Source of the DNA: Escherichia coli
GTDB lineage: Bacteria > Pseudomonadota > Gammaproteobacteria > Enterobacterales > Enterobacteriaceae
DNA: 64,000 nucleotides
Reading direction: 5' to 3' (one strand)
Assembly (NCBI RefSeq): GCF_036507355.1
Contig: NZ_AP027877.1
This document shows positions 39,460 to 61,808 of this stretch, one piece after another. A program made the translations under genes and the position numbers. The notes below the pieces were generated by a model that saw only the letters and a program-made list of their open reading frames with translations, had not been told where the DNA came from and ran no database searches. Numbering within the stretch: position 1 is the first letter of the stretch; the number at the start of each line of letters is the position of its first letter.

Positions 39460-41451
39460 TGGAGCACCTCAAAAACACCATCATACACTAAATCAGTAAG
39501 TTGGCAGCATCACCCGGGCTGGCTGATTATTTTCGTCAATTAGGGATTTCTGACAAGGAACAGGCGGCTCAATTTTTCGCCTGGTTGTTGTGCTGGCACG
39601 ATATTGGAAAATTTGCCCGCTCATTTCAGCAACTTTACCTGCACCCACAACTCAAGGTTCCGGAAGGCGCAAGAAAGAATTACGAAAAGATCTCTCATTC
39701 AACGCTGGGCTACTGGTTGTGGCATCATTATTTAAGTGAATGCGAAGAATTGCTTCCTGCCTCTTCACTCTCTACTCGCAAACTTAAACGTGTAATAGCG
39801 ATGTGGATGCCCATGACTACCGGGCATCATGGTCGGCCCCCTGACCGTATTGATGAACTGGATAATTTTCTGCCTGAAGACAAAGTTGCCGCGCGAGATT
39901 TTCTCCTTGAAATCAAGGCACTGTGTCCGCTCATAGAGATTCCCACATTCTGGGATAATGACGAGGGAGTTGAACTTTTAAAACAACTTTCCTGGTATAT
40001 CTCTGCAACAGTCGTACTTGCAGACTGGACGGGTTCGTCAACGCGATTTTTTCCACGCGTCGCACACCCAATGGATATTAAAGATTACTGGCAGAAAACT
40101 TTAGTTCAGGCTCAAAACGCCTTAACCGTCTTTCCTCCAAAAGCAGAAACCGCACCTTTCACCGGAATTAATACGCTGTTTCCTTTTATTGAGCACCCGA
40201 CACCATTACAGCAAAAGGTGCTGGATCTGGATATCAGCCAGCCAGGGCCACAGTTATTTATTCTGGAAGACGTGACTGGCGCAGGTAAAACAGAAGCGGC
40301 GCTTATCCTGGCGCACAGGTTGATGGCTGCGAGGAAAGCACAGGGTTTGTTTTTTGGCCTGCCAACAATGGCAACGGCCAATGCCATGTACGATCGGCTG
40401 GTCAAAACCTGGCTTGCTTTCTATTCGCCAGAGTCCCGCCCCAGCCTGGTGCTGGCACACAGTGCCCGCACATTAATGGACCGCTTTAATGAATCACTCT
40501 GGTCCGGTGATTTAGTCGGGTCAGAAGAACCGGATGAACAAGCGTTCAGTCAAGGATGTGCAGCCTGGTTTGCCGACAGTAACAAGAAGGCTTTACTGGC
40601 TGAAATTGGCGTCGGCACGCTGGATCAGGCGATGATGGCGGTGATGCCGTTCAAACATAATAATCTGCGGCTTCTGGGGCTGAGTAACAAAATCCTGCTG
40701 GCTGATGAGATCCACGCCTGTGACGCTTACATGTCATGCATTCTTGAAGGGCTGATCGAGCGGCAGGCGCGTGGTGGAAACAGCGTCATTTTGCTTTCTG
40801 CTACGTTATCCCAACAGCAGCGCGACAAACTCGTCGCCGCCTTTGCGCGTGGCACAGAGGGCCAGCAAGAAGCTCCGTTCCTTGAAAAGGATGATTACCC
40901 CTGGCTGACGCATGTCACGAAATCCGATGTGAACTCACACCGGGTAGCGACGCGCAAAGACGTTGAGCGTAGCGTCAGCGTGGGTTGGCTTCATAGTGAA
41001 CAAGAGAGTATTGCGCGTATCGAATCGGCGGTAAGTCAGGGAAAATGCATCGCCTGGATCCGCAATTCTGTCGATGACGCTATTAAGGTTCATCGTCAGC
41101 TGCTTGCCCGCGGCGTCATTCCCGCTTCCAGCCTTTCACTCTTTCATAGCCGCTTTGCTTTTAGCGATCGCCAGCGAATCGAAACGGAAACGCTGGCACG
41201 CTTTGGTAAAAATTGTAATTTAAAAAGATCATCGCAAGTCATTGTTTGTACACAAGTAATTGAGCAAAGTGTGGATATTGACCTGGACGAAATGATCTCC
41301 GACCTTGCCCCCATTGATTTGCTGATCCAGCGAGCGGGGCGATTACAGCGACATATCCGCGATATTAATGGTCAGTTAAAGCGTGACGGAAAAGACGAGC
41401 GTTCCCCTCCTGAATTGCTGATTCTGGCCCCCGTCTGGGACGACGCTCCTG

Positions 41452-41781
41452 GTGACGAATGGTTCGGCAGTGCCATGCGTACGCGCCTTTACAGAGGCCG
41501 CGCTTAAAGTCTCACCAACCGGAAAACAAAACAGCTTTGCCAGCCGTGCCTACGCCTCCTGGGCGCTGGCGGAAAAAGGCACTGTTCAACCGCGTTCTCT
41601 GGCGGCGGCTTTCTATGAACCCATTAATGGTACCCGTCAGTTAGATGTGGCGGTGCAGCGTATTACAACGCTTCGCGAAAACATGAATACGGTCTACGAA
41701 CAGAAGACTGAATGCGCAAGTTTTGACGTGATGAACAAACAGGGAAGCATGAAGGACGTACTGGACTTTATCTGCGCGTAA
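41452..41781 (+). pseudogene. 3' remnant of a cas gene, most plausibly the end of cas7/casC fused out of frame to cas3
   Basis: 109-aa frame ending 10 bp before the cas5 ATG, the position casC occupies in an intact I-E operon; the alternative reading is a frameshifted cas3 tail. Confidence 0.4.
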
Positions 41782-41791
41782 GGGGCGGCTT

Positions 41792-42973
<1,182 letters not shown>

Positions 42974-43301: not shown

Positions 43302-44339
43302 TCAAGACGCCTTCGCCAACTCTTTCACCAGAGGTAGCATTATCCGCATAACGTCACGGCAGCGACGTTCTATTCTTCCAGGAAGTGCCTTATCAATATG
43401 CTGTTGATTATCCAGTCTTACGTCATGCCAGCTATTTCCCGCAGGGAATGCGGCTGTTTTTGCGCGTTGCTGATAACCATCCTTATTCCCAAGATTCCAG
43501 TTAGTCGCTTCCACCGAAAGTACAGCAATGCCCGCTTTGTCGAATATTTCTGCGTCATTACAACACCCAGTGCCTTTCGGATAATTTTTATTCAAACCCG
43601 GATTGGTCGTTGCGGCAATTCCATGACTACGCGCAATTGCCAGCGCCCTGTCGCGCGTTAATTTCCTTACTGCTTCAGGTGTTTTTACGCCACTGTTGAA
43701 ATACAGCTTATCGCCAACGATCAGATTATCGAGATTAATCACCAATAAAGTATTTTTCTTTTCGGTATCACTCATGCGCTTGAGGAAATTCTCAGCGCCT
43801 AATTTCCCTTCTTCTTCGCCACTGGTTGCTACAAAACGAATGCCATATTCGGTTGGCGTATTTTTCAGGCGTTCTGCCAGCTCCAGCATGACACCTAAAC
43901 CTGCGGCATTATCATCCATTCCTTGTAACGTCAGCCCGCCGAGATTGGCATCTGCATCTGCGTCGCTCTGCGGGGCATAGGTATCCAGATGCGCCATAAT
44001 AATGATCTGCTGCGGCGCTTTGCCTTCATGAGCGGCAATCACCGTACTTCCCGTCACGTTGTGCCAGTTTTTGCGGTTATCGCGGGCGGTATAAATATAT
44101 CGGCTATTAAACGTACGAATATCACTGCGGTAACCCATTTGCTGAAACTGTTGCCGAATATAATCGGCAGATAACATTTCTGCAGGAGTTCCGGTCATGC
44201 GTCCCGGAAAGAAAGTGGCAATATGTCGCGCCTGTGTATTGGCAAAATCGCCAGGTTTAGGTGACGAGGCGTGTACGGGGAGAATAAAGCATACGCCGAG
44301 CGCCAGGGCAGCGGTACGGTGGCGCAATGCGGAAAACAT
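43302..44339 (-). CDS. iap: Alkaline phosphatase isozyme conversion aminopeptidase
   Basis: 345-aa ORF with signal peptide. Confidence 0.85.
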   Translation of the reverse strand: MFSALRHRTAALALGVCFILPVHASSPKPGDFANTQARHIATFFPGRMTGTPAEMLSADYIRQQFQQMGYRSDIRTFNSRYIYTARDNRKNWHNVTGSTVIAAHEGKAPQQIIIMAHLDTYAPQSDADADANLGGLTLQGMDDNAAGLGVMLELAERLKNTPTEYGIRFVATSGEEEGKLGAENFLKRMSDTEKKNTLLVINLDNLIVGDKLYFNSGVKTPEAVRKLTRDRALAIARSHGIAATTNPGLNKNYPKGTGCCNDAEIFDKAGIAVLSVEATNWNLGNKDGYQQRAKTAAFPAGNSWHDVRLDNQQHIDKALPGRIERRCRDVMRIMLPLVKELAKAS

Positions 44340-52166: not shown

Positions 52167-53306
52167 ATGAGCGCGGGAAGCCCAAAATTCACCGTTCGCC
52201 GCATTGCGGCTTTGTCACTGGTTTCGCTATGGCTGGCAGGCTGTTCTGACACTTCAAATCCACCGGCACCGGTCAGTTCCGTCAATGGCAATGCGCCTGC
52301 AAATACCAATTCTGGTATGTTGATTACGCCGCCGCCGAAAATGGGGACGACGTCTACAGCGCAGCAACCGCAAATTCAGCCGGTACAGCAGCCACAAATT
52401 CAGGCTACTCAACAACCGCAAATCCAGCCAGTGCAGCCAGTAGCTCAGCAGCCGGTACAGATGGAAAACGGACGCATCGTCTATAACCGTCAGTATGGGA
52501 ACATTCCGAAAGGCAGTTATAGCGGCAGTACATACACCGTGAAAAAAGGCGACACACTTTTCTATATCGCCTGGATTACTGGCAACGATTTCCGTGACCT
52601 TGCTCAGCGCAACAATATTCAGGCACCATACGCGCTGAACGTTGGTCAGACCTTACAGGTGGGGAATGCTTCCGGTACGCCAATCACTGGCGGAAATGCC
52701 ATTACCCAGGCCGACGCAGCAGAGCAAGGAGTTGTGATCAAGCCTGCACAAAATTCCACCGTTGCTGTTGCGTCGCAACCGACAATTACGTATTCTGAGT
52801 CTTCGGGTGAACAGAGTGCTAACAAAATGTTGCCGAACAACAAGCCAACTGCGACCACGGTCACAGCGCCTGTAACGGTACCAACAGCAAGCACAACCGA
52901 GCCGACTGTCAGCAGTACATCAACCAGTACGCCTATCTCCACCTGGCGCTGGCCGACTGAGGGCAAAGTGATCGAAACCTTTGGCGCTTCTGAGGGGGGC
53001 AACAAGGGGATTGATATCGCAGGCAGCAAAGGACAGGCAATTATCGCGACCGCAGATGGCCGCGTTGTTTATGCTGGTAACGCGCTGCGCGGCTACGGTA
53101 ATCTGATTATCATCAAACATAATGATGATTACCTGAGTGCCTACGCCCATAACGACACAATGCTGGTCCGGGAACAACAAGAAGTGAAGGCGGGGCAAAA
53201 AATAGCAACCATGGGTAGCACCGGAACCAGTTCAACACGCTTGCATTTTGAAATTCGTTACAAGGGGAAATCCGTAAACCCGCTGCGTTATTTGCCGCAG
53301 CGATAA
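52167..53306 (+). CDS. nlpD: Murein hydrolase activator lipoprotein NlpD (LysM and M23 domains); rpoS promoters are known to lie within it
   Basis: 379-aa ORF with lipobox LAGC and Q/P-rich tandem repeats. Confidence 0.9.
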
Positions 53307-53368: not shown

Positions 53369-54361
53369 ATGAGTCAGAATACGCTGAAAGTTCATGATTT
53401 AAATGAAGATGCGGAATTTGATGAGAACGGAGTTGAGGTTTTTGACGAAAAGGCCTTAGTAGAAGAGGAACCCAGTGATAACGATTTGGCCGAAGAGGAA
53501 CTGTTATCGCAGGGAGCCACACAGCGTGTGTTGGACGCGACTCAGCTTTACCTTGGTGAGATTGGTTATTCACCACTGTTAACGGCCGAAGAAGAAGTTT
53601 ATTTTGCGCGTCGCGCACTGCGTGGAGATGTCGCCTCTCGCCGCCGGATGATCGAGAGTAACTTGCGTCTGGTGGTAAAAATTGCCCGCCGTTATGGCAA
53701 TCGTGGTCTGGCGTTGCTGGACCTTATCGAAGAGGGCAACCTGGGGCTGATCCGCGCGGTAGAGAAGTTTGACCCGGAACGTGGTTTCCGCTTCTCAACA
53801 TACGCAACCTGGTGGATTCGCCAGACGATTGAACGGGCGATTATGAACCAAACCCGTACTATTCGTTTGCCGATTCACATCGTAAAGGAGCTGAACGTTT
53901 ACCTGCGAACCGCACGTGAGTTGTCCCATAAGCTGGACCATGAACCAAGTGCGGAAGAGATCGCAGAGCAACTGGATAAGCCAGTTGATGACGTCAGCCG
54001 TATGCTTCGTCTTAACGAGCGCATTACCTCGGTAGACACCCCGCTGGGTGGTGATTCCGAAAAAGCGTTGCTGGACATCCTGGCCGATGAAAAAGAGAAC
54101 GGTCCGGAAGATACCACGCAAGATGACGATATGAAGCAGAGCATCGTCAAATGGCTGTTCGAGCTGAACGCCAAACAGCGTGAAGTACTGGCACGTCGAT
54201 TCGGTTTGCTGGGGTACGAAGCGGCAACACTGGAAGATGTAGGTCGTGAAATTGGCCTCACCCGTGAACGTGTTCGCCAGATTCAGGTTGAAGGCCTGCG
54301 CCGTTTGCGCGAAATCCTGCAAACGCAGGGGCTGAATATCGAAGCGCTGTTCCGCGAATAA
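53369..54361 (+). CDS. rpoS: RNA polymerase sigma factor RpoS (codon 33 is GAG, intact)
   Basis: 330-aa product starting [14 protein letters not shown] inside the longer track ORF. Confidence 0.95.
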
Positions 54362-54378
54362 GTAAGCATCTGTCAGAA

Positions 54379-54412
54379 AGGCCAGTCTCAAGCGAGGCTG
54401 GCCTTTTTCTTT
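54379..54412 (+). terminator. Rho-independent terminator after rpoS
   Basis: aaggccagtctcaagcgaggctggcctttttcttttg. Confidence 0.8.
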
Positions 54413-54480
54413 TGTTTGGGAAGCTTGTGTTTTTGTCGCCTGGATAAGACACGTCAGCGTCCTACCCGGCAATTTGCATC

Positions 54481-54888
54481 CTATGTGTTCATCATCTTGC
54501 GCACCAGCTGCACAAACAGCTCCTGCTCTTCTGCACTCAAACGCCCCAAAAATTCCTCATCCACGCTGTCACCAATCGGTATCGCCGCAGCAAGTATCTT
54601 TTCTCCTTCGGCAGTCAGCCAGACAAAGCGACGCCGCTTGTCAGCGGCATCATGTTCACGTCTGACTAAGCCACGATTCTCCATTCTTGCCAACATTTCT
54701 GCCAACGTTGCTTTGGTGCTGACTGCTGCTTCTATCAGTGCCACCTGTTCGATACCAGGCTTATCAGCAATGGCGCGCATCACCGCATACTGTGGTTTGG
54801 TCAGGTCAGGTAACTCGTGCTGCCAGCGAGCCGTGTGCTGCTGAAAAAGCTGTCGTAACTGATGGAACGCTTTATTTCGTAACGCCAT
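54481..54888 (-). CDS. MarR/SlyA-family transcriptional regulator, divergent from the decarboxylase operon
   Basis: 135-aa ORF with winged-helix region. Confidence 0.8.
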   Translation of the reverse strand: MALRNKAFHQLRQLFQQHTARWQHELPDLTKPQYAVMRAIADKPGIEQVALIEAAVSTKATLAEMLARMENRGLVRREHDAADKRRRFVWLTAEGEKILAAAIPIGDSVDEEFLGRLSAEEQELFVQLVRKMMNT

Positions 54889-55003
54889 GTAAACTCCGGG
54901 CTAATTCTCTGTCGCTATCATAGCGGTTTTTTAGTGACGAAGAAGATGTTGTTACTTTTCAATCCTTGCCGCTGTGGAAATGAAGGAGTATGTTAATAAT
55001 AAC

Positions 55004-55017
55004 GTTCGTATACGAAC
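55004..55017. promoter_or_regulatory. Perfect 14-bp palindrome GTTCGTATACGAAC, candidate MarR operator
   Basis: Read directly; 18 bp upstream of the ecdB ATG in the divergent intergenic region. Confidence 0.4.
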
Positions 55018-55034
55018 AATTAAGAGAATAAGCA

Positions 55035-55628
55035 ATGAAACTGATCGTCGGGATGACAGGGGCTACCGGTGCGCCTCTTGGTGTGGCATTACTGCAAGCG
55101 CTGCGGGAGATGCCGAATGTCGAGACTCATCTGGTGATGTCGAAGTGGGCGAAAACCACCATTGAACTGGAAACGCCTTACAGCGCCCGCGATGTTGCTG
55201 CCCTCGCTGACTTCAGCCATAACCCGGCGGATCAGGCGGCGACCATCTCCTCAGGTTCCTTTCGTACCGACGGCATGATCGTTATTCCGTGCAGTATGAA
55301 AACGCTCGCCGGTATCCGCGCTGGTTACGCCGATGGCCTGGTAGGGCGCGCGGCGGACGTCGTGCTCAAAGAAGGCCGCAAACTGGTGCTGGTGCCGCGT
55401 GAAATGCCGCTTAGCACCATCCATCTCGAAAATATGCTCGCACTTTCACGCATGGGCGTGGCGATGGTGCCGCCGATGCCTGCCTTTTATAACCATCCCG
55501 AAACGGTAGATGACATTGTCCACCATGTAGTAGCCCGCGTGCTGGATCAATTTGGCCTCGAACATCCCCACGCCAGGCGCTGGCAAGGATTGCCGCAGGC
55601 CCGGAATTTTTCTCAGGAGAATGAATAA
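55035..55628 (+). CDS. ecdB: UbiX-like flavin prenyltransferase (Pad1/EcdB)
   Basis: 197-aa ORF MKLIVGMTGATGAPLG…. Confidence 0.85.
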   Translation: MKLIVGMTGATGAPLGVALLQALREMPNVETHLVMSKWAKTTIELETPYSARDVAALADFSHNPADQAATISSGSFRTDGMIVIPCSMKTLAGIRAGYADGLVGRAADVVLKEGRKLVLVPREMPLSTIHLENMLALSRMGVAMVPPMPAFYNHPETVDDIVHHVVARVLDQFGLEHPHARRWQGLPQARNFSQENE

Positions 55629-57055
55629 TGGCATTTGATGATTTACGCAGCTTTTTACAGGCGCTTGATGACCACGGCCAGTTACTGAAAATCAGCGAAG
55701 AGGTGAACGCGGAACCGGATCTGGCAGCAGCAGCTAACGCCACCGGGCGTATCGGTGACGGCGCGCCCGCGCTGTGGTTTGATAATATTCGCGGCTTTAC
55801 CGATGCCCGCGTGGCAATGAACACCATCGGTTCCTGGCAGAACCACGCGATTTCCCTCGGCCTGTCGCCAAACACCCCGGTCAAAAAGCAGATTGATGAG
55901 TTTATCCGCCGCTGGGATAACTTCCCGATTGCCCCGGAGCGCCGCGCCAATCCAGCCTGGGCGCAGAACACCGTCGATGGCGACGAGATCAACCTGTTCG
56001 ATATCCTGCCGCTGTTTCGTTTAAACGATGGCGATGGCGGTTTCTATCTCGACAAAGCGTGCGTGGTTTCCCGCGATCCGCTCGACCCGGATAACTTCGG
56101 CAAGCAGAACGTCGGCATCTACCGCATGGAAGTGAAGGGCAAGCGTAAGCTCGGCCTGCAACCGGTGCCGATGCACGATATCGCCCTGCATCTGCATAAA
56201 GCGGAAGAGCGCGGTGAAGATCTGCCGATTGCGATCACGCTCGGTAACGATCCGATCATCACGCTGATGGGGGCCACGCCGCTGAAATACGAACAGTCTG
56301 AGTATGAAATGGCAGGTGCGCTGCGTGAAAGCCCGTACCCGATCGCCACCGCCCCGCTGACCGGTTTTGATGTGCCGTGGGGTTCAGAAGTGATCCTCGA
56401 AGGGGTCATCGAAAGCCGTAAACGCGAAATCGAAGGGCCGTTCGGTGAGTTTACCGGACACTACTCCGGCGGGCGTAACATGACCGTGGTGCGCATCGAT
56501 AAAGTCTCTTACCGCACCAGGCCGATTTTCGAATCGCTGTACCTCGGCATGCCGTGGACCGAAATCGACTACCTGATGGGGCCAGCCACCTGTGTGCCGC
56601 TGTATCAGCAACTTAAAGCCGAGTTCCCGGAAGTACAGGCGGTGAACGCCATGTACAACCACGGCCTGCTGGCGATTATCTCCACCAAAAAACGCTACGG
56701 CGGCTTTGCCCGCGCGGTGGGCCTGCGTGCGATGACCACGCCGCACGGTCTGGGCTACGTAAAGATGGTGATTATGGTCGATGAAGACGTTGACCCGTTC
56801 AACCTGCCGCAGGTGATGTGGGCGCTCTCCTCGAAAGTAAATCCGGCAGGGGATTTGGTGCAGTTGCCGAATATGTCCGTGCTGGAACTCGACCCTGGCT
56901 CAAGCCCGGCGGGGATCACCGACAAGCTGATTATCGACGCCACCACGCCTGTCGCCCCGGACAACCGTGGTCACTACAGCCAGCCGGTGGTGGATTTGCC
57001 GGAAACCAAAGCCTGGGCTGAAAAACTGACCGCTATGCTGGCCGCACGTAAATAA
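55628..57055 (+). CDS. ecdC: UbiD-family (prFMN-dependent) decarboxylase (YclC/EcdC)
   Basis: 475-aa ORF; TAATG overlap with ecdB. Confidence 0.85.
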   Translation: MAFDDLRSFLQALDDHGQLLKISEEVNAEPDLAAAANATGRIGDGAPALWFDNIRGFTDARVAMNTIGSWQNHAISLGLSPNTPVKKQIDEFIRRWDNFPIAPERRANPAWAQNTVDGDEINLFDILPLFRLNDGDGGFYLDKACVVSRDPLDPDNFGKQNVGIYRMEVKGKRKLGLQPVPMHDIALHLHKAEERGEDLPIAITLGNDPIITLMGATPLKYEQSEYEMAGALRESPYPIATAPLTGFDVPWGSEVILEGVIESRKREIEGPFGEFTGHYSGGRNMTVVRIDKVSYRTRPIFESLYLGMPWTEIDYLMGPATCVPLYQQLKAEFPEVQAVNAMYNHGLLAIISTKKRYGGFARAVGLRAMTTPHGLGYVKMVIMVDEDVDPFNLPQVMWALSSKVNPAGDLVQLPNMSVLELDPGSSPAGITDKLIIDATTPVAPDNRGHYSQPVVDLPETKAWAEKLTAMLAARK

Positions 57056-57065
57056 GGAGAACAAG

Positions 57066-57302
57066 ATGATTTGTCCACGTTGTGCCGATGAACAGATTGA
57101 AGTGATGGCGAAATCGCCGGTGAAAGATGTCTGGACGGTATATCAGTGCCAGCATTGCCTTTATACCTGGCGCGATACCGAACCGCTACGTCGCATCAGC
57201 CGCGAACATTATCCCGAAGCGTTCCGCATGACGCAGAAAGATATTGATGACGCGCCAATGGTGCCGAGCATTCCGCCGCTGCTGGCGGCAGATAAGCGCT
57301 AA
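57066..57302 (+). CDS. ecdD: Small zinc-ribbon subunit of the decarboxylase (BsdD/VdcD-like, EcdD)
   Basis: 78-aa ORF with CPRC…CQHC. Confidence 0.75.
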   Translation: MICPRCADEQIEVMAKSPVKDVWTVYQCQHCLYTWRDTEPLRRISREHYPEAFRMTQKDIDDAPMVPSIPPLLAADKR

Positions 57303-57310
57303 TAAAAAGT

Positions 57311-57338
57311 GCCGGGTAGTGGCTTTGCTTTACCCGGC
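57311..57338. terminator. Hairpin between the convergent ecdD and pphB
   Basis: gccgggta…tacccggc stem. Confidence 0.5.
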
Positions 57339-57342
57339 CTCA

Positions 57343-57999
57343 TTACTTTATTTTATAAAATGACAGCCGCCCGCTTTTCGGCGATCCGGTATCAATATAA
57401 ATCTGGTTAGCGAACGTCTGAATGTTATCAAGCATCATATGTCCAAATATAAAATAATCAGCGCCGTTTATTTGTTGTAACTCGCCATTAAGAGATTTCT
57501 GCACACGATCAACAGGCCAAAGTAATTCGCTCTCCGCTATTTGTTTGCCAAAGAGATATTCATTGCCCGGATAATCCGCATGTGCGATGACATATTTTAT
57601 AATGTCGTTGGTAATTTCAATAATATGTGGAAGTTGATGAAATTTCAGCAATAGACCTATAGCTTCTTTTTGTTCCATATCATTTAACTCAAAGAACCAG
57701 TCACCACCGCTGGCAAGCCACATATTGCCATCGCCGGTCGCGAACGCATCCAGCGCCATTGCTTCGTGGTTGCCTTTAACGGAGATAAACCAGGGCTGGT
57801 TTAGCAGGCGCAGGACGTCAAGACTCTCCGGCCCACGATCAATATTATCGCCGACAGAAATAAGTAAGTCGGTTTCGGGGAAAAAAGAGAGTTGATGTAA
57901 GCGGGATTGTAATAACTGATATTCACCATGAATATCACCAACGACCCATATATGGCGATAGTGATGGGCATTGATTTTTTGATAGCGTGTAGATGGCAT
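57343..57999 (-). CDS. pphB: Serine/threonine protein phosphatase 2 (PphB/PrpB)
   Basis: 218-aa ORF with metallophosphatase motifs GDIHG and GNHE. Confidence 0.9.
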   Translation of the reverse strand: MPSTRYQKINAHHYRHIWVVGDIHGEYQLLQSRLHQLSFFPETDLLISVGDNIDRGPESLDVLRLLNQPWFISVKGNHEAMALDAFATGDGNMWLASGGDWFFELNDMEQKEAIGLLLKFHQLPHIIEITNDIIKYVIAHADYPGNEYLFGKQIAESELLWPVDRVQKSLNGELQQINGADYFIFGHMMLDNIQTFANQIYIDTGSPKSGRLSFYKIK

Positions 58000-58104: not shown

Positions 58105-60666
58105 TTACACCAGACTCTTCAAGCGATAAATCCACTCCAGCGCCTGACGCGGGGTGAGTGAATCCGGATCGAGGTTTTCCAGTGCCTCGACCGCAGGCGA
58201 GGTTTCTTCTGGCACTGACAGCAAAGACATTTGCGTACCATCCACTTGCGTAGCGGCGGCGTTCGGCGAAATGCTTTCCAGCTCACGCAGTTTTTGCCGT
58301 GCGCGCTTAATAACCTCTTTTGGCACGCCGGCCAGAGCTGCAACCGCCAGGCCGTAGCTTTTGCTCGCCGCGCCATCCTGCACGCTATGCATAAAGGCAA
58401 TGGTGTCGCCGTGCTCCAGTGCATCGAGATGCACGTTGGCGACGCCTTCCATTTTCTCCGGTAACTGGGTCAGCTCGAAATAGTGGGTAGCAAACAGCGT
58501 CAATGCCTTAATCTTATTCGCCAGATTTTCCGCGCACGCCCATGCCAGTGACAGACCATCGTAAGTGGACGTTCCACGCCCGATCTCATCCATTAACACC
58601 AGACTGTATTCGGTGGCGTTATGTAAAATATTGGCGGTTTCAGTCATCTCCACCATAAAGGTTGAGCGCCCGGAAGCCAGGTCATCTGCCGCGCCTACGC
58701 GGGTAAAGATGCGATCGATAGGTCCAATCTCGACTTTTTGTGCCGGTACATAGCTGCCGATGTAGGCCATCAGCGCAATCAGTGCGGTCTGGCGCATATA
58801 GGTACTTTTACCGCCCATGTTCGGGCCGGTAATAATCAACATCCGGCGCTGCGGTGACAGATTCAGCGGGTTGGCGATAAATGGCTCGTTCAGCACCTGT
58901 TCAACCACCGGATGGCGGCCTTCGGTAATGCGAATGCCCGGTTTATCAATAAAGGTCGGGCAGGTGTAGTTCAGGGTATAGGCCCGTTCCGCCAGGTTCA
59001 CCAGCACGTCGAGTTCCGCCAGCGCGCTCGCGCTCTGTTGCAACGCTTCCAGATGCGGCAACAGCAGGTCGAACAGCTCTTCATAAAGCTGTTTTTCCAG
59101 AGCCAGTGCTTTGCCTTTTGAAGTGAGGACTTTATCTTCGTACTCTTTTAGCTCTGGAATGATGTAGCGCTCGGCGTTTTTCAGCGTCTGGCGACGCATA
59201 TAGTTGATAGGTGCCAGATGGCTTTGCCCACGGCTGATTTGAATGTAGTAGCCGTGCACCGCATTAAAGCCAACTTTTAGCGTGTCCAGGCCGGTACGTT
59301 CACGCTCGCGGACTTCCAGACGCTCCAGATAATCGGTCGCGCCGTCAGCCAGCGCGCGCCACTCATCCAGCTCTTCGTTATAGCCCGATGCGATAACACC
59401 ACCGTCGCGTACCAGCACCGGCGGTGTGTCGATGATTGCTCGCTCCAGCAGATCGCGCAGCTCGGCAAACTCGCCCATCTTCTCACGCAGCGCCTGTACC
59501 GGTGCACTATCGACAGTTTCTAACTGCGCACGCAGCTCCGGCAGTTGCTGGAAAGCGTGGCGCATACGGGCCAGATCGCGTGGGCGAGCGGTACGCAACG
59601 CCAGACGCGCCAGAATACGTTCCAGGTCGCCGACCTGACGCAGTACCGGCTGTAGCTCGGCGGTGAAATCCTGCAATGCGCCAATAGTTTGCTGGCGCTC
59701 AAGCAACACGCGGGTATCGCGCACTGGCATATGCAGCCAGCGTTTCAGCATACGGCTGCCCATCGGCGTGACGGTGCAGTCGAGCACAGAAGCCAGCGTA
59801 TTTTCCGCACCACCCGCCAGGTTCTGGGTGATTTCCAGATTACGACGCGTCGCGGCATCCATAATGATGCTGTCCTGCTCACGTTCCATGGTGATGGAAC
59901 GAATATGCGGCAGAGTCGTACGTTGGGTATCTTTCGCATACTGCAACAGACAACCGGCAGCACAAAGTCCGCGCGGCGCGTTCTCGACGCCAAAACCGAC
60001 CAGATCGCGAGTGCCAAATTGCAGATTCAACTGCTGGCGCGCGGTGTCGATTTCAAACTCCCACAGCGGGCGACGGCGCAGGCCGCGACGGCCTTCAATT
60101 AACGACATTTCAGCAAAATCTTCTGCATACAGCAATTCCGCAGGATTAGTGCGTTGCAGTTCTGCCGCCATCGTTTCCCGGTCAGCCGGTTCGCTCAGGC
60201 GAAAACGCCCGGAGCTGATATCCAGCGTCGCGTAGCCGAAACCTTTGCTGTCCTGCCAGATAGCCGCCAGCAGGTTGTCCTGACGCTCCTGCAACAGGGC
60301 TTCATCGCTGATGGTGCCTGGCGTAACGATACGCACAACTTTGCGCTCAACCGGACCTTTGCTGGTCGCCGGATCGCCAATTTGTTCGCAGATGGCAACG
60401 GACTCGCCCTGATTCACCAGTTTGGCGAGGTAGTTTTCCACCGCATGGTAGGGAATCCCCGCCATCGGGATCGGCTCTCCCGCCGAAGCACCGCGTTTGG
60501 TCAGTGAAATATCCAGCAGTTGCGACGCGCGTTTTGCGTCGTCATAAAACAGTTCATAAAAATCACCCATCCGGTAAAACAGCAGGATCTCGGGATGCTG
60601 GGCTTTCAGCTTGAGATACTGCTGCATCATGGGCGTATGGGCGTCGAAATTTTCTATTGCACTCAT
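58105..60666 (-). CDS. mutS: DNA mismatch repair protein MutS
   Basis: 853-aa ORF. Confidence 0.97.
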
Positions 60667-61335: not shown

Positions 61336-61764
61336 TTACGTTTTGGTAGCAATCAGGATTGCTGATGCTTTGATCAACGCAATAACGCGTGAGCCAGTGG
61401 TAAGTTTCATTTCATCCTGACTTTCATTTGTTACCACTGCCACAATTTCAAAACCCGCATCCGTTTTGATATGGACAGTGGCGTTCACTGCGCCTTCGGT
61501 GATTGTCGACACGCTGCCAGCAAACTGGTTGCGAGCAGAGAATTTCAGTCCACAGTCTTCCGTGGCCAGCGTTACCCACGGGGCTTTAATCAGGGCAATC
61601 GCTTCTTTCCCTTTTGCCAGCCCCAGAGCCTGTTGGCTGCTGTGTGTAACAATCGCCACCAGTTTTGCACCACCTGCCAGCGTCAGTTCTACTTCGTCAT
61701 TCACCGCGCCCATTGCTACTGCGCTAACTGTTCCGGTTAATTGATTTCTTGCTGAAACTGCCAT
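61336..61764 (-). CDS. Tandem TOBE (Mop-like molbindin) domain protein
   Basis: Start placed at MAVSARNQ (ATG 61764) after an AAGGAGG RBS; two repeated halves (ARNQLTGTVS / ARNQFAGSVS); 45 bp downstream of the fhlA stop on the same strand. Confidence 0.7.
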   Translation of the reverse strand: MAVSARNQLTGTVSAVAMGAVNDEVELTLAGGAKLVAIVTHSSQQALGLAKGKEAIALIKAPWVTLATEDCGLKFSARNQFAGSVSTITEGAVNATVHIKTDAGFEIVAVVTNESQDEMKLTTGSRVIALIKASAILIATKT

Positions 61765-61808
61765 ACTGCCTCCTTTCATTGAATGTTGATCGAGTATAAC
61801 CACATCTG

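Follow-up and report, generated by a model that had tools for sequence, protein, structure and literature searches.

A hosA-ecdBCD locus between rpoS and pphB in Escherichia coli: a probable HosA-controlled hydroxyarylic acid decarboxylase operon and its distribution in Enterobacterales

What does the segment between rpoS and the serine/threonine phosphatase gene pphB encode in an Escherichia coli that lacks the K-12 genes ygbI-ygbN at this place, and is the segment a foreign acquisition or an old resident of the site? These questions are raised by a 64,000-nt stretch of E. coli DNA, here called the window, to which all coordinates refer. An original prediction for this stretch had described a MarR regulator divergent from tightly coupled genes for a UbiX-like prenyltransferase, a UbiD-family decarboxylase and a small zinc-ribbon subunit. 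The corresponding four open reading frames (ORFs) are indeed present (Table 1), and the predicted span, 54481-57302, runs exactly from the stop codon of the regulator to that of the last subunit. In our assessment, the locus is very probably a HosA-controlled non-oxidative hydroxyarylic acid decarboxylase operon (hosA and ecdBCD; HAD or kpdBCD in other nomenclatures).

We begin with the regulator. A PDB sequence search aligns it to HosA of the enteropathogenic E. coli strain E2348/69 (PDB 8AGA) with 133 of 135 residues identical (expectation value, E, 2.7e-84), and the two substitutions, I98 for V and V126 for M, are both conservative. The residues named as 4-hydroxybenzoate contacts in HosA, that is, H9, R12, F15, H18, K31 and D110 (bioRxiv 10.1101/2024.04.24.590444), are all found in the translated ORF. 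Because of this near-identity and the full set of ligand residues, the regulator is, as judged from its sequence, the characterised HosA, a 4-hydroxybenzoate-sensing repressor of the MarR family. It should be pointed out that the identification came through the PDB search. A scan of NCBIfam, which holds no HosA model, gave for the regulator generic MarR-family matches alone, all of them under the cut-off, and a literature search for MarR or operator papers on Ecd-type decarboxylases returned nothing specific.

As related in papers that cite Roy and Ranjan (2016), HosA represses both its own gene and the decarboxylase operon, and its palindromic site is located downstream of the transcription start. 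The same secondary accounts state that 4-hydroxybenzoate frees the repressor from the DNA and induces the operon several-fold, and that HosA tells 4-hydroxybenzoate from close analogues, with a dissociation constant (KD) of ca 4.7 uM. For HosA of E. coli UMN026, derepression by 4-hydroxybenzoate has been reported as well.

The intergenic region between hosA and the gene for subunit B contains a perfect palindrome, GTTCGTATACGAAC, which a small script located independently of the published HosA site, and which was absent from the output of the repeat finder. Cao et al. 2018 (PMC6261655) list in their supplement oligonucleotides for HosA binding that contain this sequence with identical flanks, and the palindrome of the window is thus the published HosA operator. 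In an alignment of the regulator-B regions from 56 Enterobacterales species, 51 species share the operator arms GTTCG/CGAAC without any difference and the remaining five deviate by one base; the central 4 bp and the flanks are variable. The arms are in other words a clear phylogenetic footprint.

Two further blocks, CTTGYC and GTAnnTT (with TAnnTT 17 nt after CTTGYC), are kept across genera, and they fit the -35 and -10 hexamers of a putative BCD promoter, which are proposed here on the basis of conservation and spacing. Since the blocks fit in this way, the operator would be situated just past the transcription start. Closer to hosA, there is an odd-length palindrome, CGCTATCATAGCG, the core of which, CTAT(C/G)ATAG (54914-54924), is kept in ca 90% of the 56 regions, with flanks that vary. 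This element may be the -10 element of hosA (TATGAT on the minus strand) or a site for autoregulation.

We turn now to the enzyme subunits, for which the scores exceed the cut-offs of the NCBIfam models VdcB, VdcC and VdcD throughout, in agreement with the predicted UbiX/UbiD homology. Subunit B scores 312.2 bits on VdcB (cut-off 290) and 246 bits on the UbiX family model TIGR00421 (cut-off 108.9), and is identical in 196 of 197 residues to Pad1 of E. coli O157:H7 (PDB 1SBZ), such that two of the four proteins have near-identical solved structures. Subunit C scores 785.3 bits on VdcC (NF041204, cut-off 650) and 413.8 bits on the UbiD family model TIGR00148 (cut-off 244.85), and has 54% identity to ShVdcC of Sedimentibacter hydroxybenzoicus (PDB 7AE4, E 1e-159). 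For subunit D, the score on VdcD is 120.6 bits (cut-off 30), and the match to ShdD (PDB 7AE4 chain a) has E 3e-11.

Using the E(D)-R-E motif of UbiD enzymes and the C-D interface residues as defined by Marshall et al. 2021 (PMC8379154), the key positions can be located. In subunit C, R166 (within NVGIYR) aligns with the arginine of the catalytic E-R-E motif of ShVdcC, and E269 and E274 (within EGPFGEF) align with E273 and E278. In subunit D, residues C3, C6, C28 and C31 form two CxxC knuckles that align with the zinc ligands of ShVdcD, a subunit reported to be required and to act allosterically (PMC8379154). Three salt bridges have been described between C and D, and two of them are retained, formed by R36 and E39 of D with E29 and R131 of C.

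Two other assignments for subunit C were considered and rejected. As an AroY-type protocatechuate decarboxylase, it would be expected to resemble the AroY structures, but these are matched with E of only 1e-27 (5O3M) and 7e-25 (5NY5), as compared to 1e-159 for ShVdcC. The UbiD of ubiquinone biosynthesis is excluded by a score of 174 bits on NF008175, the equivalog model for 4-hydroxy-3-polyprenylbenzoate decarboxylase, which has a cut-off of 788.

The arrangement of the genes is compact. Downstream of rpoS, which ends at 54361, hosA comes next on the minus strand, and 146 bp separate it from the divergent gene for B, which is followed by those for C and D in the same direction. The genes for B and C share a single base (TAATG), and the ribosome-binding site for C, GGAG, lies inside the 3' end of the B gene, 8 nt ahead of the C start. 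The gap between C and D amounts to 10 nt and contains an AAGGAG ribosome-binding site. D and pphB are convergent, and the hairpin between them, which has a T run after it on the minus strand and is therefore likely the pphB terminator, constitutes the right-hand junction of the compact form. This hairpin is kept in Escherichia sp. E1V33 and in Pseudocitrobacter; the junction alignment shows it to be missing in K-12 and in the E. coli form that bears both the operon and ygbI-N.

Table 1. Coordinates of the locus and of neighbouring features in the 64,000-nt window.
Feature	Coordinates	Strand	Description
rpoS terminator hairpin	54377-54406	+	inverted repeat with 13-nt arms, then T run
hosA	54481-54888	-	135 aa, MarR-family; from ORF list
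odd-length palindrome CGCTATCATAGCG	54913-54925		25 nt upstream of hosA start
putative BCD promoter	54966-54994	+	-35 TTGCCG 54966-54971, 17-nt spacer, -10 TATGTT 54989-54994
HosA operator GTTCGTATACGAAC	55004-55017		perfect 14-bp palindrome, 17 nt ahead of B start codon
subunit B (ecdB / pad1)	55035-55628	+	197 aa, UbiX-family flavin prenyltransferase; from ORF list
subunit C (ecdC / yclC / kpdC)	55628-57055	+	475 aa, catalytic UbiD-family decarboxylase; from ORF list
subunit D (ecdD)	57066-57302	+	78 aa, zinc-ribbon activator subunit of C; from ORF list
D-pphB hairpin GCCGGGTA, 12 nt, TACCCGGC	57311-57338		inverted repeat, perfect 8-bp arms
pphB (serine/threonine phosphatase 2)	57343-57999	-	NCBIfam PRK09968, 464 bits (cut-off 332)
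mutS	58105-60666	-	beyond pphB; from ORF list
di-Mop/TOBE (molybdenum-pterin-binding) gene, c3292-like	61336-61803	-	between ygbA and fhlA

A REP-like (repetitive extragenic palindrome) sequence, GCCTGGATAAGACACGTCAGCGTCCTACCCGGC, was recognised by eye at 54438-54470, between the rpoS terminator and the hosA stop codon; it is better preserved in an O114:H49 genome.

Nothing in the sequence weighs against the HosA-decarboxylase reading, although two limits should be noted. The third of the salt bridges described between ShVdcC and ShVdcD is lost on both sides, D173 being replaced by G171 in C and R12 by E12 in D, and a strict sigma-70 consensus scan gave no promoter in the hosA-B intergenic region. 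The ratios of non-synonymous to synonymous substitution rates (dN/dS) are 0.016-0.067 for C, 0.03-0.10 for B, 0.05-0.17 for D and 0.06-0.10 for hosA, and within E. coli they amount to 0.045-0.17; the genes are thus under purifying selection.

Concerning the substrates, Table 2 of Payer et al. (PMC6644310) lists 4-hydroxybenzoate as the best substrate of recombinant O157:H7 EcdCD, with vanillate also accepted and the reverse carboxylation shown; the entry cites Lupa 2005 and Chamkha 2002. The same paper (PMC6644310) calls the O157:H7 enzyme Ecd, the name adopted in the original prediction, which in the literature has also been given to Enterobacter cloacae genes. Saito et al. (PMC6424909) describe that a lysate of E. 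coli with Klebsiella kpdBCD turns 4-hydroxybenzoate into phenol. In a rumen proteomics paper, the housekeeping UbiD alone is mentioned. The expectation that the substrate would be a hydroxy-aromatic acid can be upheld, although it understates what is known, and the accompanying statement that the substrate is not firmly established was too cautious, since the inducer and the in vitro substrates have been reported.

On this basis, the following mechanism can be proposed, in which HosA as the repressor, 4-hydroxybenzoate as the inducer, the substrates and the function of D are carried over from the reports on the related systems. In the absence of inducer, a HosA dimer would occupy GTTCGTATACGAAC, a short way past the operon promoter, and stop transcription, and HosA would repress its own gene too. 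4-Hydroxybenzoate entering the cell would bind at the dimer interface and release HosA from the DNA, and B, C and D would then be made from one translationally coupled transcript. Next, B would prenylate reduced flavin mononucleotide (FMN) to the prenylated cofactor prFMN, with which C would convert 4-hydroxybenzoate into phenol and CO2 and, less well, vanillate into guaiacol, the reaction being reversible. Subunit D, bound to C as a zinc-ribbon subunit, would keep the catalytic Glu-Arg-Glu loops in position. The copy of the operon in the window is probably active.

The physiological role would be the detoxification of phenolic acids derived from plants, diet or parabens, probably under low oxygen. 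4-Hydroxybenzoate is a precursor of ubiquinone, and tight repression of the operon would presumably also spare the cell's own pool. E. coli cannot degrade phenol.

It is useful to compare the window with other E. coli genomes. As the original prediction had it, K-12 lacks these genes at the site: in MG1655, the rpoS-pphB interval is occupied by ygbN-ygbI, and the genome has no copy of these genes. The homology between the window and K-12 breaks off at 54407, shortly after the rpoS terminator, and is taken up again at 57344, where pphB has its stop codon, with a nucleotide identity of 99.6% on the rpoS side and 94.9% in pphB. That the operon stands instead of ygbI-ygbN is correct for the window, where these genes are absent from the rpoS-pphB interval, but it is not valid as a general rule. 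Among 5,426 complete E. coli genomes, the operon is present in 2,417, and in 801 it is directly beside pphB. In the other ca 1,600 operon-bearing genomes this adjacency is not found, and the one such genome that was opened, the O114:H49 genome, has the operon followed by ygbN-ygbI, so that about two thirds of the genomes with the operon probably keep both segments. The operon and ygbI-N are therefore are independent presence/absence segments and not alternatives. This synteny comparison, which the original prediction had proposed, is in line with its description of the interval as a polymorphic hotspot, and the rpoS-mutS interval is a documented hotspot of recombination (PMC4209514). The window itself keeps the compact form, with the operon directly beside pphB. 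No complete E. coli genome exceeds an identity of 98.7% to the window over the operon, or ca 98.5% over 24 kb, and one that has the same layout is 97.0% identical over the interval. Over the 40000-64000 stretch, the E. coli genomes that match best have 5-6 kb of additional DNA.

The mutS-rpoS patterns and the typing primers of Ewers 2014 (PMC4209514), together with the amplicon sizes given there for strain EDL933, make it possible to place the window by in-silico polymerase chain reaction (PCR). The mutS-yclC and slyA-nlpD amplicons, 1318 and 1393 bp, have the sizes predicted for EDL933, and no sites for the ygb and CFT073-specific primers, including o454 (ygbN), o388, f265 and o347, were found in the window. 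The rpoS side is accordingly of 'pattern I' (O157:H7, enterohaemorrhagic E. coli group EHEC-1), with the operon beside pphB-mutS and with o454, o388 and f265 absent. However, the fhlA-mutS amplicon is 1674 bp as compared to 1208 bp in EDL933, and the fhlA-nlpD amplicon is 9145 bp as compared to 8679 bp, which excludes that the entire fhlA-nlpD haplotype is that of EDL933. The fhlA-mutS amplicon is longer because of the di-Mop/TOBE gene, which is absent in K-12 and, by the published amplicon sizes, in EDL933, and present in CFT073-type strains. The window is thus a mosaic of an O157-type rpoS side and a CFT073-type fhlA side, and the claim that the segment between rpoS and pphB has the form described for O157:H7 holds, the match to the O157 type being confined to the rpoS side.

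Several known systems resemble the one in the window. The HosA-HAD operon of UMN026 and E2348/69, reportedly described by Roy and Ranjan (2016, Biochemistry 55:1120), has the same regulator (HosA structures 8AGA, 8PQ4 and others), the same 14-bp operator with its flanks and the same divergent layout, but in E2348/69 ygbN-ygbI come after the operon ('pattern IV'), whereas in the window the operon abuts pphB. EcdBCD of O157:H7, said to have been studied by Lupa et al. in 2005 and to be located on a 2.9-kb mutS-rpoS segment treated by LeClerc et al. in 1999, agrees with the window in its genes and in their chromosomal form, as seen from the match of B to 1SBZ and from the 1318 and 1393 bp amplicons. 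The difference is that O157:H7 EDL933 is without the di-Mop/TOBE gene on the fhlA side, and the window is not O157:H7. The kpdBCD clusters of Klebsiella and Enterobacter occupy the same rpoS-mutS site with the same divergent regulator and a C that is 96-97% identical. More distant are VdcCD/ShdCD of S. hydroxybenzoicus and BsdBCD of Bacillus subtilis, which share the logic of a UbiX-like B, a UbiD-like C and a zinc-ribbon D, although VdcC of S. hydroxybenzoicus is only 54% identical to C of the window and one of the three C-D salt bridges differs. The bsd cluster is controlled by a LysR-type regulator, BsdA, in place of the MarR-type HosA. The substrates of the VdcCD/ShdCD and BsdBCD enzymes are likewise 4-hydroxybenzoate and vanillate (PMC8379154).

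The second question, namely the origin of the segment, was addressed by scanning for protein C in one genome per species, which gave 243 relatives; the comparative counts below refer to the best 80 of these, nearly all from distinct Enterobacterales species. Over these 80 loci, the amino-acid identity of C is 88-99% with a median of 95.7%, as compared to 93.4% for MutS and 80% for NlpD (loci L005-L084). C is thus unusually conserved, with a dN/dS of ca 0.02, which points to strong functional constraint even though the protein is dispensable in many E. coli. A divergent HosA-like gene precedes the cluster in each of the 76 loci for which sufficient upstream DNA was available, and the order B-C-D is uniform in the 66 of the 80 loci where B was detected. 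In 11 of 76 species there is no B gene and the regulator is directly upstream of C-D (L030, L052, L054, L063, L064, L068, L072, L074, L076, L080 and L083), which suggests that the housekeeping UbiX can supply the prFMN there.

With regard to location, rpoS and/or mutS lie within 4 kb of the cluster in 54 of the 80 loci. The order rpoS-hosA-B-C-D-mutS is found in Citrobacter, Klebsiella, Kluyvera, Enterobacter, Leclercia, Atlantibacter, Kosakonia, Cedecea, Franconibacter, Mangrovibacter and others, while in Salmonella arizonae/diarizonae and in Phytobacter the orientation of the cluster relative to rpoS is inverted, and in Rahnella, Pantoea, Erwinia and more distant taxa the cluster is elsewhere in the genome. 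Among the 80 species, pphB is beside the operon in Escherichia and Pseudocitrobacter only, one Klebsiella having a more distant copy ca 0.5 kb away. In the window, pphB has a G+C content of 42% (0.42 at its third codon positions, GC3), which is well under the 51% of the window and the 58% of the decarboxylase genes beside it. Because the cluster holds the site across so many Enterobacteriaceae genera, it is most likely an old resident of the rpoS-mutS site in this family, and the operon was most likely lost by K-12 rather than gained by O157:H7. Vertical inheritance with repeated loss is the simplest reading, and recombinational re-import between E. coli lineages is possible in addition. The loss reading fits an older view of the region, namely that of 'conservation and loss'.

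The comparison also bears on the regulation. In Klebsiella, Enterobacter, Kluyvera, Leclercia and Pseudocitrobacter, there is a second operator-like site (CGTATACGAAC; GAT-CGTRTRCGAAC), which is promoter-distal, just upstream of the -35 element (loci including L023, L035 and L007), at a place equivalent to 54945-54962 of the window. No such site is present in the aligned intergenic regions of Escherichia and Citrobacter, and that of E. coli is ca 25 bp shorter than in the genera that have it. Without the second site, E. coli may therefore repress the operon via one site, and less tightly. We give about even chances to the joint proposition that the second site of Klebsiella, Enterobacter, Kluyvera and Pseudocitrobacter was lost in Escherichia and Citrobacter, that the cluster is ancestral and was lost by K-12-like lineages, and that 11 of the 76 species dropped B. 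These three points appear to be unstated in the literature consulted, and they leave the identity of the system unchanged.

It remains to weigh the loss reading and the assignment of the system against other explanations. One is that the 2.9-kb segment is a recent, non-ancestral foreign island, inserted into O157:H7 and related lineages, for instance from Shigella, as has been put forward in older work and in a preprint of 2024. The patchy occurrence in E. coli (2,417 of 5,426 genomes) and the location in a recombination hotspot would be consistent with this, as would the G+C content, which is 58% in B and C as compared to 51% in the window. Moreover, the preprint (10.1101/2024.04.24.590444) claims a transfer from Shigella dysenteriae, with which the loss reading is in conflict. 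However, an island of this kind does not account for the gene order common to many genera and inverted in Salmonella arizonae/diarizonae and Phytobacter, nor for the D-pphB hairpin junction that the window has in common with Escherichia sp. E1V33 and Pseudocitrobacter. In addition, the synonymous divergence (dS) between C and its counterparts in other genera, 0.8-1.0, is similar in magnitude to the values that could be obtained for flanking genes (rpoS 0.96 vs Atlantibacter, mutS 1.36 vs Enterobacter). We therefore regard a recent foreign origin as improbable.

Two further alternatives concern the function. The true substrate could be another phenolic acid, such as protocatechuate or gallate, with C being an AroY- or LpdC-type enzyme. 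Related enterobacterial enzymes do take several hydroxybenzoates, the Klebsiella enzyme being entered in the table of Payer et al. with protocatechuate and gallate among its substrates, and the activity of the window allele towards 4-hydroxybenzoate and vanillate is assigned by analogy. The score of C above the VdcC cut-off and the much weaker AroY matches (E 1e-25 to 1e-27 vs 1e-159) nevertheless argue against this. The enzyme purified from Enterobacter cloacae P240 is reportedly an orthologue of C (Matsui 2006). In the table of Payer et al. (PMC6644310), it is listed as a 4-hydroxybenzoate decarboxylase, with no vanillate or gallate, and the O157:H7 enzyme is listed there with 4-hydroxybenzoate as its best substrate. 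Furthermore, the linked sensor HosA distinguishes 4-hydroxybenzoate from close analogues, according to the accounts quoted above, and a different substrate is thus very unlikely. The other possibility is a silent remnant: in the window strain, the cluster would make no contribution and be heading for loss as in K-12. More than half of the complete E. coli genomes do without the operon, which is hence dispensable, and the promoter-distal operator-like site of Klebsiella, Enterobacter and Kluyvera has been lost in E. coli. Yet the four reading frames are intact and of full length, the catalytic, zinc-binding and ligand-binding residues are kept, the operator and the ribosome-binding sites are intact, and the dN/dS values within E. 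coli are low, which makes decay of the cluster hardly credible.

It is important to note that the operon, the regulator, the inducer, the operator, the substrates and the variable placement between mutS and rpoS have all been published already. As a discovery the locus therefore carries little weight, being an ordinary, intact and known system. Its interest lies elsewhere: E. coli lineages are typed by means of the rpoS-mutS interval, HosA together with its operator is in use as a biosensor for 4-hydroxybenzoate, a breakdown product of parabens, and the decarboxylase is one way for gut Enterobacteriaceae to form phenol from 4-hydroxybenzoate. The comparison across genera, in turn, is a modest corrective to the idea of the segment as a pathogen-specific acquisition.

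Finally, some observations were made outside the locus. The type I-E CRISPR-Cas (clustered regularly interspaced short palindromic repeats) locus at 39501-42683 looks degraded: Cas3 is C-terminally truncated (profile positions 52-665 of 878) and a Cas1e fragment comes directly after it, with no casA-E between the two and no array detected before iap (43302-44339). In nlpD, a 24-nt tandem repeat at 52365-52429 codes for a QQPQIQ stretch, and the length of the gene varies by strain, being 1140 nt in the window and 1089-1095 nt in three compared genomes.

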